Source of the DNA: an uncultured Elusimicrobia bacterium
GTDB taxonomy: Bacteria > Elusimicrobiota > Elusimicrobia > 2-01-FULL-59-12
Reading direction: 5' to 3'
Length of the DNA stretch: 64,000 nt
Assembly: GCA_963702895.1 (NCBI GenBank)
Contig: OY969767.1
Coordinates: 1,120,001-1,184,000 of the forward strand
The notes below the pieces were generated by a model that did no database searches, was not told the DNA's origin, and was given only the letters and a program-made list of their open reading frames with translations. The translations under genes were made by a program, and so were the position numbers. Positions 5,393-60,987 of this stretch are shown here, in pieces (the stretch's first letter is position 1; every line of letters begins with the position of its first letter).

Positions 5393-5431
5393 AAATAGAG
5401 AATAGACAATAGCTCTATTCTCTATTGTCTA
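5393..5431. repeat. Heptamer tandem-repeat hairpin
   Basis: aaatagagaatagacaatag followed by ctattctctattgtcta: 7-nt units in inverted arrangement. Confidence 0.7.
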
Positions 5432-18154: not shown

Positions 18155-21057
18155 GAGCGGGTGTGGTTCATCTCGAGAGAGAAGGCATCCTCATGCCTCT
18201 TCCGGAGGGGGCTCTTTCCATGGCGGATCTGGGTCGGTTTGTGCTCTTTGCGGCAGACATGGGCGAGCGTGCACCACGAGCAGTAGCCATACCCGTCGCT
18301 CGGACGGATGAAAAAGGAGCCTGACTCGATCTCTTGGACCAAAAAGCCTAATCTCTTGCGGAAGGGCTCGCCGTAGTCCTTCCAGAATTCCGGGCCAATC
18401 TCCAGCGGCATTTCGCTTTCTCCTAAACGATAGAACCGTGCTGAGCCGTTGCGAAAGGCCTTGTTCCCTTGTTTCTTCAACCATGCTTGGGCCAGGAGCA
18501 CATAGAGAGGCAGTTGGAAGCTTTTGCCCTTCAAGATGGCTGTTTCGACCTTCACGTTTTTCCCAATCCCGCCAGAGCCAGTTTTATAGTCTACAACCCG
18601 GAAAGCGTTCTCTTTCAGGTCTAAGCGATCAATCCGACCCTGGAGAAACAGCCCATCCACGACTTCAGCGAGGTTCAGCTCGAAATGGGTCGGCCGAAAG
18701 CCGCTTTCTTTCAGCTCGGCCCTATCTTGAGGTATAAAGCTGTGAAGTGTGCTTAGGATGGAGTTTTGCTCCGCCTGCCAAGCCAGAGGATAGAGCTCGG
18801 GATGCTCTTTGGCAAAGAGCTCCAACTCCTTTTCGGCCAATTGATCCATATTGACTTCGTCTGATTTCGAATAGCTTTGATAGATAAGCTCAAGTAACTT
18901 ATGAATGAGTTTTCCACGTCCTGCGAGGCTGAGCACTCCGTCTTCCACATCCCTTTGTTCGGTTTCGAGCCCCAGAACCTTCCGGCCATAGACCTTGAAG
19001 GGACACTCCGCCAAATCCTTTAAGGTGGCGGGGGATAAGCCCTTCGCCAGGAGCTTCCGGGAGAGCGGGTGGTCTTTCCCGATGAGCCCGTCATAGGCCC
19101 CCAGTGCCTTGAAGGATTCCATCTCGCGCTGCGACTGGAGGAGATGGTTCATCATGTCTCGGTCCCATCCTAAAGCCTCATAGAGGGTGTCGGTTTCACA
19201 GTCGTGCCTGTGGAAGGCGAGAGAAACCTCTTTCGGACGAAGCGTCCGGGCCGGGACCTGATGAATCTTTTCCAGCCATGTCCGGCGCAAGGATTGGAGC
19301 GCCACTTGGTTCTGGCGCAGATAGTCATGGAGGTAAAGCGATAGGACCAGCGCCTTGCCTTCTTCGTCGGAACGCTGGCAGGAGAGGTGCAAATGGCTCC
19401 TGGCCGATTGGATGGCGAGCTCAAAGAGCAATTTTTCTTCCTGGTAGCCGTCCATCTTGCGGCCCAGCCGGCAGCCGAGCGCTTGTGCGAGGGTCGACCG
19501 GGCCGCGTCGGAGAGGAACGGATCTTCACGAATCAGACGCGGGAAGAGTTTCTCATTCAAGCCCACAAGGAACACGGCTTCAAAGGAAAGCCCGCGCGCG
19601 CTCATGATGTCCATCACTTGAACGCCTGCGACATGGTCGGGGACAAGCGCCAGACGCAAGCCTTCGAGTTTTTCTTCCAGCACTTCGAGGAAGCGCGCGT
19701 AGGGCACTGGCTTCCCCAGCGCGTCGAGCTCGCTCAGGGATTCGACGGCCTCCAAGAGCCCTTCCCAAAGGCGGATTTCGACGTCCGTGGCGTCTTCTGG
19801 GAAATGAATCTTTGAGGAGAGAAGTTCCTTCGCCCGGCGGGTGTGCTCTGACCAGCTCGAAAGGATTTCCCCCTCCCTTGTCTCAGCCAAAAGGACCTCC
19901 CTTGCCCGCTTGACGAGCGGCCAAGCTCCGACGGGTTCCTCTGCATGGAGGGCATAGGGAATTCGGTGGTTTTCGAGGATTTCACGCAGGGTGCTCAGGT
20001 AAGGGTCTAAAGAGCGGGCGATCACTGCCATGTCGTCATACGGAACCCCCTGCTGGGCGAGTTCAAGGATCTTTTTTGCGGTGAGCCAGATTTCATCGTG
20101 GGTCCCGGAGCAGCTCCAGGCTTCTGTGGTTCGACCCGGCGAACCGGCCCCATCCACCTGTGGAGTGCTCGATGGTTGGGGCCGTCCCGACGAAATAGAT
20201 TCATAGGAGGACGGGACGGCGAGTGGGCGAACCGGCGCGGGAATCGATGGGTTGTTTCGCCGGCTCGCCGGGTCGCCGGCTCGCCGGCTCTGACTTTGAA
20301 AGGCTGGATCTTTCAGCAACAGCTCCGCATACCCGTAAGCGGGATGGCCTTCTTCGTAAGGAAAGTAGATCCTGGCATGGGGATGAGTCGAAAGCGCTCT
20401 GACCAGGTCGAGCTGCACGCCGGTGAGATCGTAGAAGCCATAGAGGTAAATCGCCTTCAGTTCTTGGATCCAGGGGGTCTCGGGGATGGCCGCGGCCGCT
20501 CGTCGGATCAAGTCCGCACTCGTTTGCAGGCGGTGGTCGTGGAGGACTTTATAGGTCAGGACATTGAGTTCCAAAATCGGCACCGCCCCTCCTGCTCCTT
20601 CACCGAGGTGACCTTCTCGGGCGACGTTGGCGCAATCGACGACGCGCGCGCCGGAATCCTGAAGGTCTTTGAGCGTTGCCGCAAGGGCCCCCGCCAGCCC
20701 TTTGGGAATCGGTGAGCCCGGATGCACCAGGGCGTCTTTGGAAAGGAAGGGCATCTGTGCCTCGCCCGAAAGGAAGTCATGCACGATTTCCCGGTAGAGC
20801 GTGGGCTCGGTGATCCTGTGCGTGTCCAAGGTGGACTCACTCACCCAAGCACGTTCCGCCAGCGCAAAAAAGGTCAGGAAATGGATGTTGAGGTACGCAT
20901 GGCTTTGGGCGAGTCGTCGTTGTAAGCGGTTCAAGATCTGGCCCGAGGGCGATAGAACCAGGACCCCGCCCAAGGGGTCGGACTTCTTCTGAGCTGCCAC
21001 ATCGCTAAGAAAAGCGTTTTCGAGAGAGGAATAGGTGCCGGTCGTGAGGTGGAACAT
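18151..21057 (-). CDS. addB: AddB-like helicase/nuclease subunit (C-terminal PD-(D/E)xK nuclease)
   Basis: YGFYDLT, ARGLSFEAVFLVGLNE, CPF...GRIDRLD..VVDYKTG, C-terminal CSWC..VC Fe-S cysteines; start reassigned to MFHLTTG. Confidence 0.85.
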   Translation of the reverse strand: MFHLTTGTYSSLENAFLSDVAAQKKSDPLGGVLVLSPSGQILNRLQRRLAQSHAYLNIHFLTFFALAERAWVSESTLDTHRITEPTLYREIVHDFLSGEAQMPFLSKDALVHPGSPIPKGLAGALAATLKDLQDSGARVVDCANVAREGHLGEGAGGAVPILELNVLTYKVLHDHRLQTSADLIRRAAAAIPETPWIQELKAIYLYGFYDLTGVQLDLVRALSTHPHARIYFPYEEGHPAYGYAELLLKDPAFQSQSRRAGDPASRRNNPSIPAPVRPLAVPSSYESISSGRPQPSSTPQVDGAGSPGRTTEAWSCSGTHDEIWLTAKKILELAQQGVPYDDMAVIARSLDPYLSTLREILENHRIPYALHAEEPVGAWPLVKRAREVLLAETREGEILSSWSEHTRRAKELLSSKIHFPEDATDVEIRLWEGLLEAVESLSELDALGKPVPYARFLEVLEEKLEGLRLALVPDHVAGVQVMDIMSARGLSFEAVFLVGLNEKLFPRLIREDPFLSDAARSTLAQALGCRLGRKMDGYQEEKLLFELAIQSARSHLHLSCQRSDEEGKALVLSLYLHDYLRQNQVALQSLRRTWLEKIHQVPARTLRPKEVSLAFHRHDCETDTLYEALGWDRDMMNHLLQSQREMESFKALGAYDGLIGKDHPLSRKLLAKGLSPATLKDLAECPFKVYGRKVLGLETEQRDVEDGVLSLAGRGKLIHKLLELIYQSYSKSDEVNMDQLAEKELELFAKEHPELYPLAWQAEQNSILSTLHSFIPQDRAELKESGFRPTHFELNLAEVVDGLFLQGRIDRLDLKENAFRVVDYKTGSGGIGKNVKVETAILKGKSFQLPLYVLLAQAWLKKQGNKAFRNGSARFYRLGESEMPLEIGPEFWKDYGEPFRKRLGFLVQEIESGSFFIRPSDGYGYCSWCTLAHVCRKEHKPTQIRHGKSPLRKRHEDAFSLEMNHTRS

Positions 21058-26596: not shown

Positions 26597-27409
26597 TTAA
26601 TACGGAATTCGGGTGGGTGAAGGTGCGTTCGGCTGTTGGTTCGGCGGCGGAGGTGGACTGTTGCTCGGGAACGTCGGCAAGGAGTTGTAATCTTCAGGGC
26701 TTGATTTCGGAACGGATCTCTCGGAGGCGCCCGTGACCGTGCCAAAGCCTTCCAAAGTCCGGGTGCGGATATCTCGGGAAAGCTGGTCCCAGATGGTCTG
26801 CCGCGCTTCCTCTTCCGTGAGGGACCCCTCATAGCCGGACGAGGCCACATAATAGCGAAGTTCCCCGTTCATGTTGGGTTCTGTCCAAAGAGTGAGGTTC
26901 TTGATTTTGTCATAAAAGGTTACGTTCGCCAGGATCCACAGTTTGTACTCCGTGGGAACTTGGTTGGAGTCATAGCTCAAGGGCTCCAGGATATAGCGGG
27001 TGATATCGCCGATCACCACGCCGTCGGCCTGGTCTTCGGTCGTGATCTGGTAACGACCATCCCGGTTGAATTCGGATTGAACGGCCAGTGTCAGTTTGTC
27101 TTCAAGACCATACTGCTGGGTGTGATTGGTGAAAGGCCGTACCGCGAGTTTGGCGATGTGCTGCGGAAGAATCTGAGGAGCCGGGTTGTAGTAATACTTG
27201 GAGCAACCGGTCATGACAAAAGTGACGAGCAATGAGCAATGAGCGATGAGGATGATTAGGTGACGGTTCGGCAATTTAAGCCTAGTGAAATACGGCTCCA
27301 AAGCCGTCATTCCGGCGAAAGCCGGAATCCATGGTCGTTGACGCTTATGGACCCCGGCTTCCGCCGGGGTGACGTCAGAGGTGTGATTCACTAGTCTCAG
27401 TTTTCTCAT
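26597..27409 (-). CDS. lptE: LptE-family lipoprotein
   Basis: Lipobox-like MTGC; position between leuS and holA; N-terminus contains repeat-derived sequence, so the start is uncertain. Confidence 0.75.
   Translation of the reverse strand: MRKLRLVNHTSDVTPAEAGVHKRQRPWIPAFAGMTALEPYFTRLKLPNRHLIILIAHCSLLVTFVMTGCSKYYYNPAPQILPQHIAKLAVRPFTNHTQQYGLEDKLTLAVQSEFNRDGRYQITTEDQADGVVIGDITRYILEPLSYDSNQVPTEYKLWILANVTFYDKIKNLTLWTEPNMNGELRYYVASSGYEGSLTEEEARQTIWDQLSRDIRTRTLEGFGTVTGASERSVPKSSPEDYNSLPTFPSNSPPPPPNQQPNAPSPTRIPY
27305..27374. repeat. REP doublet (GTCATTCCGGCGAAAGCCGGAATCCA / TGGACCCCGGCTTCCGCCGGGGTGAC)
   Basis: Two inverted hairpin copies inside the 5' part of the lptE ORF. Confidence 0.85.
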
Positions 27410-49728: not shown

Positions 49729-50334
49729 CTACTTTTTGGCGAGTGCCTCTCCCACGCGGCCGACGAGGTTTGCCCCGGGTTTGAGCGTCGCCGATCCGGT
49801 TTTCCAATTGGCCGGGCAGGCTTCTTCGGGGTGCTTGGCGAGATAGGCGTTGGCCTGCACCTTGCGCAGAAGCTCATCCGCATTGCGGCCGACGTTGTAG
49901 AAGTTCACTTCGGAATTCACGAGGCGTCCTTCCGGGCTGATGATGAAGCTGCCGCGAAGGGCGAGGCCCGTCGCTTCGTCATAGACGCCAAAGAGGCGCG
50001 ACACGGTGCCTGTCGTATCGGCGCCCATCAGGTAGCGCACGCCGCCCAGGAGCTTTTCCTCGCGCCGCCAGGCGAGGTGCACAAACTTGTTGTCCGTGGA
50101 AACGGAGATGACGGTCGCCCCCGACTTCTGGAGCTGGTCGTGCTTCTCGGCGAGGTCCGCCAATTCCGTCGGGCACACAAACGTGTAGTCCGCAGGATAG
50201 AACACGAGGACCGTCCACTGCCCTTTGGCTTTCAGGTCATCGAGCGAGATCTTTCCAAAATCCGACCGCGCGGGGTCGTAGACATCCAGTTCAAACGATG
50301 GCACGAGTTCTCCGACTTTGACGGAATTCTGCAT
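49729..50334 (-). CDS. ahpC: 2-Cys peroxiredoxin (AhpC family)
   Basis: FYPADYTFVCPTE, GRNADE, ACPANW. Confidence 0.93.
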   Translation of the reverse strand: MQNSVKVGELVPSFELDVYDPARSDFGKISLDDLKAKGQWTVLVFYPADYTFVCPTELADLAEKHDQLQKSGATVISVSTDNKFVHLAWRREEKLLGGVRYLMGADTTGTVSRLFGVYDEATGLALRGSFIISPEGRLVNSEVNFYNVGRNADELLRKVQANAYLAKHPEEACPANWKTGSATLKPGANLVGRVGEALAKK

Positions 50335-50419
50335 GGGTGCATCCTCCTTGCTGAAGAGGCCAATAGAGCCATCGGCCTAAGGTCGTTATTATAAGCGATT
50401 TTGGACGGGGTTGGTGTTC

Positions 50420-50503
50420 GGTTCAGAGCTGTCAGAAATCGGCTCAGAGTTCAGAGTTTGTCTAGGTCCCTGAGCGCTGAGTTGATTTCTGGCCTTTCTG
50501 AGC
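50420..50503. repeat. Heptamer (TCAGARY) inverted array upstream of the four-helix-bundle gene
   Basis: ttcagagc/gtcagaaa/ctcagagt/ttcagagt ... ctgagcg/ctgagtt/ctgagct. Confidence 0.65.
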
Positions 50504-50658
50504 TGGCAGCACATCTGGTCCGCGCATCACTCCGCGCTAAGAGATCAAAAATCTTTTGGGATTCTGATCGATCTGTTTGTCCATGGTCAAACAAGAGTGA
50601 ATAAAGTATGGGATTTTGCATCTAAGGGATAGAAGTAACTATTCCACAGGAGGAAGAC

Positions 50659-51069
50659 ATGCAAAACCAAGAGAGGTTTCAGGAGAAGTTTCTCGAATTT
50701 GGGGCAGAAATCGCAACTTTAGTCAGCCAGCTCTCACGAACGACGCCCAGCCGTCAAATCGCCGATCAATTGCTCAGAAGTGGCACTTCGGTAGGGGCCA
50801 ATATTCACGAGGCGCAATCGGCAGAATCGAGGGCTGATTTCATTCATAAACTCCAGATTGGACTGAAGGAAATTCGAGAAACGTCATACTGGCTGGCGAT
50901 TGTTGATAAATCAGGATTGCTCAAAGGCCATTTGCTGGACCATGCTATGAGTCGCTGTCAAGATTTGACGGCAATTCTAGCGAGGTCGGTGATAACGGCT
51001 AAGTCAAAGATTCCAGCTCAGAGACACCAGAACTCGACTCAGAACTCAGAGAGCTATTCAGATCTCTGA
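50659..51069 (+). CDS. Four-helix-bundle protein (23S rRNA IVP / TIGR02436-like)
   Basis: QLLRSGTSVGANIHEAQSAESRADFIHKLQIGLKEIRETSYWL; AGGAGG RBS. Confidence 0.93.
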   Translation: MQNQERFQEKFLEFGAEIATLVSQLSRTTPSRQIADQLLRSGTSVGANIHEAQSAESRADFIHKLQIGLKEIRETSYWLAIVDKSGLLKGHLLDHAMSRCQDLTAILARSVITAKSKIPAQRHQNSTQNSESYSDL

Positions 51070-51090
51070 GCTCTGAGTTCTGAACTGTTC

Positions 51091-51690
51091 AAATCTGCCC
51101 GGTACAGGACTCCCCTAAACTGCCCTCAACTCAGAGATCTCAGAACTCAACTCAGAGCTCAGAGCGATAATCAGATCTCTGAGTCCTGAGTTCTGAGCTC
51201 TGAGCTGATCAAATCTGCCCGGTACAGGACTTCCCTAAACTGCCCTCAACTCAGAGATCTCAGAACTCAACTCAGAGCTCAGAGCGATAATCAGATCTCT
51301 GAGTCCTGAGTTCTGAGCTCTGAGCTGATCAAATCTGCCCGGTACAGGACTTCCCTAAACTGCCCTCAACTCAGAGATCTCAGAACTCAACTCAGAGCTC
51401 AGAGCGATAATCAGATCTCTGAGTCCTGAGTTCTGAGCTCTGAGCTGATCAAATCTGCCCGGTACAGGACTTCCCTAAACTGCCCTCAACTCAGAGATCT
51501 CAGAACTCAACTCAGAGCTCAGAGCGATAATCAGATCTCTGAGTCCTGAGTTCTGAGCTCTGAGCTGATCAAATCTGCCCGGTACAGGACTTCCCTAAAC
51601 TGCCCTCAACTCAGAGATCTCAGAACTCAACTCAGAGCTCAGAGCGATAATCAGATCTCTGAGTCCTGAGTTCTGAGCTCTGAGCTGATC
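51091..51690. repeat. Tandem array of five 120-bp units, each with 16-17 nt of the tRNA-Val 3' end plus a heptamer hairpin
   Basis: Units start at 51091, 51211, 51331, 51451 and 51571; all identical except one base in the first; the sixth start (51691) runs into the tRNA itself. Confidence 0.95.
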
Positions 51691-51695
51691 AAATC

Positions 51696-51769
51696 TGCCC
51701 GGTACAGGACTTGAACCTGTGACCCCTTCCATGTCAAGGAAGTACTCTAGCCAGCTGAGCTAACCGGGC
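51696..51769 (-). tRNA. tRNA-Val (GAC)
   Basis: GCCCGGT acceptor, TAGCTCAG D-arm, CTTCC-TTGACAT-GGAAG anticodon arm, GGTTCAAGTCC; no encoded CCA. Confidence 0.96.
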
Positions 51770-55789: not shown

Positions 55790-56000
55790 CAGAGGGTGAA
55801 GGCGCGCCACTGAGTCGTTGGCGCGTCCGCCTGGCAGTTGTGGCGGAGAACCGAGCGCCAGACACCTGGCGCTCGGTCGCCGGTTGTGTGGCGACCGAAC
55901 CCAAAAGGATGGGCCCTACAGCGGGTGAAGGGAATCGTCCGCCAGACGACCGGCGGACGGTCGCCTGTTGTGTGGCGACCGAACCCAAAAGGATGGGCCC
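55790..56000. repeat. tRNA-Gly 3' fragments interleaved with CGCC(A)..TGGCG mini-hairpin doublets; 84-bp period duplication
   Basis: 55874-55937 is repeated at 55958-56021; the T-arm gggaatcg|gaaccc is split by the hairpin doublet 55938-55980. Confidence 0.75.
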
Positions 56001-56003
56001 TAC

Positions 56004-56074
56004 AGCGGGTGAAGGGAATCGAACCCTCGTCTCAACCTTGGCAAGGTCGCATTCTACCATTGAACCACACCCGC
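56004..56074 (-). tRNA. tRNA-Gly (GCC), copy 1
   Basis: GCGGGTG acceptor, GACC-TTGCCAA-GGTT anticodon arm, GGTTCGATTCC; no encoded CCA. Confidence 0.95.
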
Positions 56075-60892: not shown

Positions 60893-60987
60893 AGATCAGA
60901 AATCAGAGAGCAGAAATCTAATACACGGACTTTTATCGCGAGATCCACTGCCCTATTTCTGATCTCTGATCTCTGCTTTCTGCTCTG
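60893..60987. repeat. Heptamer inverted array (ATCAGAG family) downstream of tRNA-Cys
   Basis: gatcagaaatcagagagcagaaatc ... tttctgatctctgatctctgctttctgctctg. Confidence 0.75.

Follow-up and report, generated by a model that had tools for sequence, protein, structure and literature searches.

A PF05635 four-helix-bundle gene between CAGA-core hairpins: a candidate RAYT/REPIN-like selfish unit behind a promoter-like motif common to DNA-uptake and recombination genes

In a 64,000-nucleotide stretch of the genome of an uncultured Elusimicrobia bacterium (contig OY969767.1, positions 1,120,001 to 1,184,000; hereafter the window), an intact gene of the four-helix-bundle family PF05635 lies between two complete hairpins and behind a bipartite promoter-like motif. 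Because the hairpins are built of the gene's own word and the motif is common to uptake and recombination genes, the locus is likely to be a selfish gene-plus-repeat unit that would spread with host DNA uptake. The link of the PF05635 unit to the promoter-like motif is the new piece of this analysis. The fuller reading that we prefer, at slightly less than an even chance, is a RAYT/REPIN-like selfish unit in which the protein, as a predicted pentamer, would bind the repeats cognate to it on single strands, while host transformation and recombination enzymes would spread both the gene and gene-less hairpins.

The PF05635 locus

The locus is made up of the following features, in window coordinates.

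49729-50334, minus strand: AhpC/TSA peroxiredoxin gene (prx), directly before thrS; absent at the empty sites too
50419-50505: upstream complete hairpin, -48.8 kcal/mol on the plus strand, z -5.6
50599-50625, plus strand: bipartite promoter-like motif GAATA-N15-CATCTAA, 33 bases before the ATG; putative promoter
50648-50653, plus strand: Shine-Dalgarno AGGAGG, read from the sequence
50659-51069, plus strand: four-helix-bundle gene, PF05635/TIGR02436, 136 aa, from the ORF call and profile searches
51014-51087: gene-end hairpin, overlapping the stop codon; z -2.6 (plus), -4.1 (minus)
51091-51690: tandem array of five 120-bp units in the assembly, four identical and the fifth with one change
51696-51769, minus strand: tRNA-Val(GAC), convergent with the PF05635 gene; target site of the insert

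The interval from tRNA-Val to thrS measures 1.9 kb in the source genome (G000) and consists of the array, the gene, a hairpin and the peroxiredoxin; prx and the PF05635 gene are its only genes, and there is no integrase gene. As the earlier note had stated, the cassette is antisense to both neighbours, the peroxiredoxin gene and tRNA-Val(GAC), each on the minus strand, and is lower in GC: 0.474 against 0.57-0.61 around it (prx 0.607, kinase gene 0.574, window 0.57). The peroxiredoxin gene is probably a separate acquisition outside the PF05635 unit.

The same note had described inverted CTCAGAR arrays flanking the gene. These are present on both sides, but each flank is a complete hairpin and not one arm of a pair, so that two hairpins bracket the gene and it does not sit in the loop of one terminal stem; the gene-in-loop form is present at two other PF05635 paralogues of the genome. 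In the left arm of the upstream hairpin the CAGA words are spaced 9/12/7 and the right arm mirrors them; the left arm of the gene-end hairpin has the same spacing. Past residue ~117, the PF05635 protein is hairpin sequence in translation: the ORF tail ...QRHQNSTQNSESYSDL is the left arm of the gene-end hairpin, and the stop codon (51067-51069) falls within the right arm. Two DNA sequencing runs covered short pieces of the locus; run X1 contained a 151-nt contig identical to the upstream hairpin region and a 143-nt piece across one 120-bp unit junction.

In each 120-bp unit, 16 nt that duplicate the 3' end of tRNA-Val are followed by a spacer and then a CTCAGAR hairpin, and all of the 16-nt copies lie on the tRNA side of the PF05635 gene. 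The array is a gene-less version at the same site as the PF05635 unit, and the gene-end hairpin is a diverged sibling of the array hairpin. Both this five-hairpin array and the promoter-like motif had been missed by the earlier reading.

Predicted structure and conserved residues of the PF05635 protein

Profile searches matched the protein to PF05635 at 67.8 bits (cut-off 33.8) and to TIGR02436 at 84.1 bits (cut-off 24), which bears out its earlier assignment as a four-helix bundle. The predicted structure (pLDDT 95.6) has four long helices and superimposes with TM 0.83 on 2RLD and 2GSC, both pentameric (five chains), and with TM 0.76 and 12% identity on Avd (4DWL). The claimed structural kinship with Avd is thus upheld by the predicted model; PF05635-Avd homology is already in print. 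By analogy with 2RLD and 2GSC, the protein presumably forms a homopentamer. In the available text of bioRxiv 10.1101/2023.10.23.563531, one stem-loop is touched by each of the five protomers of Avd, and the available text of PMC4990558 describes the function of the S23p/PF05635 family as an open question.

In an alignment of 58 family sequences, from which three loci with stops were excluded, the invariant and near-invariant columns contained no His or Tyr and no HUH/Tyr or other transposase or catalytic motif. The Y1_Tnp and NF047646 profiles gave no match to the PF05635 protein of the locus, and the single Y1_Tnp match in the genome was an 84-89 aa fragment.

The Avd fold also raises the possibility that, like Avd, the protein works in trans with a reverse transcriptase, in which case the arrays would stem from repeated copying of a short template primed by tRNA 3' ends. 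Three reverse transcriptase genes in the genome and the 16-nt complement of the tRNA-Val 3' end in each 120-bp unit are consistent with this model. We nevertheless judge it highly unlikely: no DGR reverse transcriptase lies beside the gene, the three genes being 0.7-0.9 Mb off, and the one of them that was profiled had a group II intron reverse transcriptase as its best match, thus resembling a group II intron maturase. Furthermore, the arms are mirror-paired and not simple runs, and tRNA-end duplications are common in the genome with unrelated hairpins.

Such 3'-end duplications were found at 17/49 tRNA/tmRNA genes, so the 120-bp array need not be the work of the PF05635 protein. The array-forming mechanism is general to the genome, and the idea of the array as a product specific to the PF05635 system was dropped as unproven. 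Tandem repeats of a tRNA 3' end plus a hairpin were also seen at 55856-56021 of the window and at genome positions 1598807, 2455013 and 1813082, with up to 5.8 copies at tRNA-Gln. Separately, a long (TCTA)n run directly follows tRNA-Ala (G000:C1, complement of 1700842-1700917), and may be real or an assembly artefact.

Empty sites in relatives

With the kinase gene and thrS as synteny anchors, tRNA-Val was found at most about 90 bases from thrS, with no insert, in five relatives (G004, G007, G008, G009 and G010), providing the empty-site orthologues that the earlier note had proposed to look for. A lone CAGA arm is left at this site in G008. Close homologues of the peroxiredoxin were present in 1/10 family genomes, elsewhere than at the thrS site. 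The tRNA-Val-thrS junction was not found in same-genus genomes; thrS is preceded by different genes in G001 and G003, while G002 gave no match and G005 had no tRNA called. We rejected tRNA targeting as a family-wide rule, as it applied to 7/44 loci of the lineage and 2/103 outside loci.

Period-7 and period-8 arrays across the genome

The 2.72-Mb genome contains 113 period-7 and 134 period-8 arrays, whereas the other periods from 5 to 12 give 1-14 each and codon-block shuffles of the genome 0-3. Inverted array pairs occur only at periods 7 (40) and 8 (26), with 0 in the shuffle. The period-7/8 arrays are beyond chance. Across 18 family word lists, 134 hairpins had one arm order and 6 the reverse; all six belonged to the CAGA family, and the families of 47, 21, 14 and 8 hairpins had no polarity exception. 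It should be noted that the word lists came from observed hairpins, so that the polarity, like the gene-word pairing described below, is partly built in.

The gene-less hairpins reported in the earlier note were verified at 5393, 12008, 60893, 10393, 10786, 41031 and 43099. At 20216 the left arm is long and interrupted, and at 27224 the left arm is clear while its weak partner lies ~160 bases away, beyond another palindrome; between the arms of this array (27300-27380) are two palindromes of the GTCATTCC/GACCCCGGC type. The hairpin at 60893 had been taken for a different unit, but has the same CAGA core as the PF05635 unit.

60894-60986: gene-less CAGA-core hairpin in the tRNA-Cys trailer

Hairpins in transcripts such as tRNA trailers and operon junctions could be the targets of a domesticated RNA-binding regulator, whose pentamer would bind them during competence or DNA damage and alter processing or stability, the orphan hairpins being its targets and not derivatives. 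Of nine independent CAGA-core sites, six have a tRNA no more than 300 bases away, compared with 6.5% of intergenic positions, which accords with this model, as do the binding of one RNA stem-loop by the five protomers of Avd and, in the available sections of PMC4990558, the cutting by RNase III of the Coxiella intervening sequence (IVS) stem, which carries heptamers. Against it, called genes contain 32/82 hairpins, and folding is more often better on the strand that is not transcribed (35 vs 14 hairpins; background 116:105), a bias that comes mainly from one 8-mer family (21:4; 7-mers 14:10) and that does not favour selection as host RNA. In addition, the sites are lineage-specific and absent from relatives, and ten paralogues with differing words fit one regulon poorly. 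We therefore regard an RNA regulator as distinctly less likely than the RAYT/REPIN-like selfish unit.

Pairing of genes and repeat words

The genome has ten PF05635 genes, eight of which carry tandem words of eight different families. For the other two of the ten, no family was scored with the word lists, and 14- and 21-base relatives were seen by eye. The earlier note had envisaged one gene serving the whole 7/8-mer system; instead, each paralogue goes with its own word. A cognate PF05635 gene exists for each of the five largest hairpin families (47, 21, 14, 14 and 8 hairpins), and nine small families of 1-5 hairpins are without a cognate gene in the genome. A gene-in-loop search for another gene family serving these nine gave no convincing case. 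The proposal of a selfish element in the manner of RAYT/REP is therefore supported by paralogue-specific words, fixed polarity, empty sites and tandem arrays, but its description as autonomous is not, given the lack of a transposase motif and the nine families without a gene.

A very long hairpin of the 14-base (7+7) SCAGA-GAGAAAC family stands before the PF05635 paralogue at comF (L008:1900-2290 and genome 1856466), and hybrids of SCAGA-GAGAAAC and CTCAGAR words were seen at genome position 2180221 and window position 60893.

Beyond the lineage, we compared 103 non-redundant homologues, 27/130 loci having been removed as duplicates. Period-7 arrays were found upstream of 68/95 and downstream of 55/99, against 0/68 and 4/73 in the respective far windows and 0-1 for other periods, confirming the enrichment beside family genes that the earlier note had predicted. 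Where arrays lay on both sides of a locus, 41/62 were inverted and 3 direct. The arrays adjoin PF05635 genes in many phyla, and no other common gene was seen.

Words also follow the proteins. Among pairs with >=60% protein identity, 61-90% had words within one mismatch, compared with 3-7% below 50% identity (40/162 loci, with no callable word, were left out of this comparison). Nearest neighbours agreed in word at 78/122 loci, against 26 when shuffled (maximum 40), whilst the same test within the class alone was weak (6/34; shuffled mean 1.3, maximum 6). The suggested co-phylogeny of protein and word thus stands as a tracking of protein identity, and is weak within the class; the same trend is possible without recognition, because linked DNA is inherited with the gene. 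In the locus whose protein is the tree sister of the PF05635 protein (L138), the word differs by one letter and the hairpin-promoter-gene-arm layout is identical.

Two further observations concern related copies. Locus L055 (G008:C17:1-13000) has four related PF05635 copies within 12 kb, one with stops. At L005 (G000:C1:354380-354480) and L060 (G007), related PF05635 genes converge on the 3' end of the initiator tRNA (a remnant in G000), and their different words suggest drift or exchange at one site.

Among relatives, 6/65 matches were removed (low score or short) before arrays, motifs and recA/yraN contexts were counted. Samples from 12 family-free relatives contained 0 arrays in 768,561 bp, and those from 11 family-bearing relatives 20 in 768,066 bp; arrays in genomes lacking the family, which the earlier note had named as counter-evidence, were thus sought in ~769 kb and none was found. 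Zero arrays were in the samples of 6/11 family-bearing genomes, and the family-bearing samples were drawn from contigs carrying family genes.

The latter comparison bears on a further explanation, in which replication slippage and local inversion at insert-tolerant junctions make the arrays and the gene simply arrives at those junctions too; hairpins and small genes alike favour tRNA trailers and operon junctions. The strict period of 7 or 8, the fixed polarity and the paralogue-specific words argue against slippage, which is already largely refuted by the enrichment beside homologues and by the array-free samples of family-free relatives; we consider it extremely improbable.

A promoter-like motif common to competence and DNA-repair genes

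The spacing of the two halves of GAATA-N15-CATCTAA presumably resembles that of ECF-sigma promoters. A weight matrix identified 38 motif sites in the genome and 0 in the shuffle. Seven of the 38 precede PF05635 genes, and three of the ten paralogues are without the motif. Further sites precede recA, yraN-comM-dprA and comEC (e.g. L227, L228, L229, L230), and the motif also stands before ORF6N, YhcG and PIN genes and the Y1_Tnp fragment, as well as, by eye, further toxin-antitoxin genes. None was found before the four ECF-like sigma genes examined. At the locus, no host gene follows on the plus strand, which indicates that the motif serves the PF05635 unit itself.

The association recurs in relatives, where we examined the contexts of 33 of the 44 strict sites outside the source genome. 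As read by eye, recA carried the motif in 7/9 family genomes and in 0 of 13 other genomes, and yraN in 5/11 family genomes. The motif was also found before comEC, comF, pilin-secretin genes, radC, a GIY-YIG gene, one RAYT above the NCBIfam cut-off and two weaker Y1/RAYT-like genes. It preceded 31/44 PF05635 loci of the lineage, against 0/39 far windows, and these loci span several subfamilies that are ~30% identical. The motif is lineage-bound, with 0/14 loci in other families of the class and 1/97 outside loci.

Several junctions show the PF05635 unit and the motif beside such genes. In G007 the motif runs straight into comF, whereas in the source genome a PF05635 paralogue lies between motif and comF. 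In G008 the motif heads radC, followed by hairpin-gene-hairpin; radC was not found in the source genome, and a lexA-like gene is present there. Immediately after this lexA-like gene come the motif and a PF05635 gene that carries the 21-base AGATCCGCC repeat family (L372 / L006, G000:C1:1322561-1323702). An ORF6N gene lies between motif and pilin-like gene at L230 (G000:C1:149255-150899), and in G003 and G007 (L380, L389) the motif leads straight to the pilin gene.

Since the motif is not palindromic, it may be read as a promoter and not as a LexA box. We infer that it could be the promoter of a competence/DNA-repair sigma factor, and it probably marks a competence regulon of recA, yraN-comM-dprA, comEC and pilin-secretin genes, to which many toxin-antitoxin, ORF6N, YhcG and RAYT-like genes have been added. 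In the available part of PMC13663708, the genes for uptake and those for recombination come under joint control in competence, and YraN and ComM resolve the transformation D-loop. As toxin-antitoxin, ORF6N and YhcG genes carry the motif, it may be a mark of any small gene for which expression under stress is an advantage. That RAYT-type and GIY-YIG genes have it as well suggests a convergence of unrelated hairpin-spreading genes on the competence window.

These same contexts leave room for a different mover. The hairpins could be moved by another enzyme of this regulon, whether a RAYT-type HUH transposase, a GIY-YIG nuclease or a YhcG nuclease, with the PF05635 gene as cargo or helper and word-protein covariation by linkage only. 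RAYT-like, GIY-YIG and YhcG genes do carry the motif, nine hairpin families have no cognate gene and the conserved PF05635 columns hold no catalytic motif. The sole Y1_Tnp match of this hairpin-rich genome is, on the other hand, the 84-89 aa piece, no other common gene was seen where arrays adjoin PF05635 across many phyla, and the sampled family-free relatives have no arrays. We give another enzyme the same low probability as the RNA regulator.

Proposed mechanism of the selfish unit

In the RAYT/REPIN-like reading that we prefer, the motif would switch on the PF05635 protein together with RecA, DprA, ComM and YraN, at times of abundant single-stranded DNA. The repeated CAGA cores would be read by five subunits in the way that the Avd pentamer reads flipped-out stem-loop bases, and cognate arrays on single strands would be kept together by the pentamer. 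The periodic arms, which can pair in many registers, would allow strand invasion at short homology, so that recombination over short homology could add, remove or multiply hairpins, whether or not the gene goes along and with no transposase of the unit's own. The outcome would be hairpin-gene-hairpin units, gene-less hairpins and tandem arrays. Dependence on host transformation and recombination functions is suggested by the motif common to those genes.

A broader and rather doubtful extension is that PF05635 proteins in general are specificity factors of widespread transposase-free selfish elements, in which a competence-induced pentamer would read its own 7- or 8-base word and steer incoming single-stranded DNA into cognate hairpins via RecA, DprA, ComM and YraN. 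If true, this would give a function to an Avd-related family, would account for the origin both of bacterial heptamer repeats and of 23S rRNA intervening sequences that bear an ORF, and would provide a natural library of programmable repeat-reading rings. The unit could also be the reason why bacteria have a puzzling excess of 7-base repeats, the cause of which is an open question in the available text of PMC4692102. Ten paralogues beside their own words in one complete genome represent built-in specificity controls, and the promoter-like motif indicates the timing and the host enzymes that deserve attention.

Comparison with known systems

In the literature searched, in which subscription journals were thinly covered and supplements were represented by their legends, no paper joined PF05635 with dispersed 7/8-mer hairpins or with competence. 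The closest parallel is RAYT/REPIN. The available text of PMC3337134 describes short single-copy genes, each paralogue with its own repeat group and flanked by several hairpin doublets, along with numerous doublets that have no gene, tandem arrays with as many as five members and a preferred arm configuration. RAYTs, however, are HUH/Tyr transposases and the arms of REPINs are 20-nt palindromes, whereas the PF05635 protein is an Avd-like helical bundle without such a motif and the arms of its unit are tandem 7/8-mers.

Avd of diversity-generating retroelements (4DWL; bioRxiv 10.1101/2023.10.23.563531; PMC10053308, as far as available) shares the fold and, presumably, a pentamer that reads a stem-loop at five equivalent sites; the PF05635 locus differs in having no reverse transcriptase or target gene, and in its 12% identity. 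A tRNA-integrated island would likewise have a duplicated tRNA 3' end, but the insert is without an integrase gene.

The Coxiella S23p IVS belongs to the same family, and in the available text of PMC4990558 has inverted termini that enclose tandem CAGA-core heptamers (GACAGAT) upstream of the ORF; that text treats the heptamers as a local feature. It lies inside 23S rRNA, with the gene in the loop of one stem and probably untranslated. In contrast, the PF05635 unit lies outside rRNA, between prx and tRNA-Val, is antisense to its neighbours, sits between two complete hairpins and has its own promoter-like motif and Shine-Dalgarno sequence.

Paired elements of similar design are interpreted as putative sites for regulators (IHF/HU) or as quadruplexes in the available parts of PMC2700814 and PMC4692102, unlike the unit proposed here; the available text of neither paper makes a link to PF05635, and that of PMC2700814 has no mention of four helix or S23. 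In Xanthomonas these are convergent GGGAATC heptamer pairs (PMC4692102, available part). In Geobacter metallireducens they are inverted pairs of 4-5 tandem 7/8-mers, and the class 3 consensus given in the available part of PMC2700814, MTYCTGA, is the word of the right arm of the PF05635 unit.
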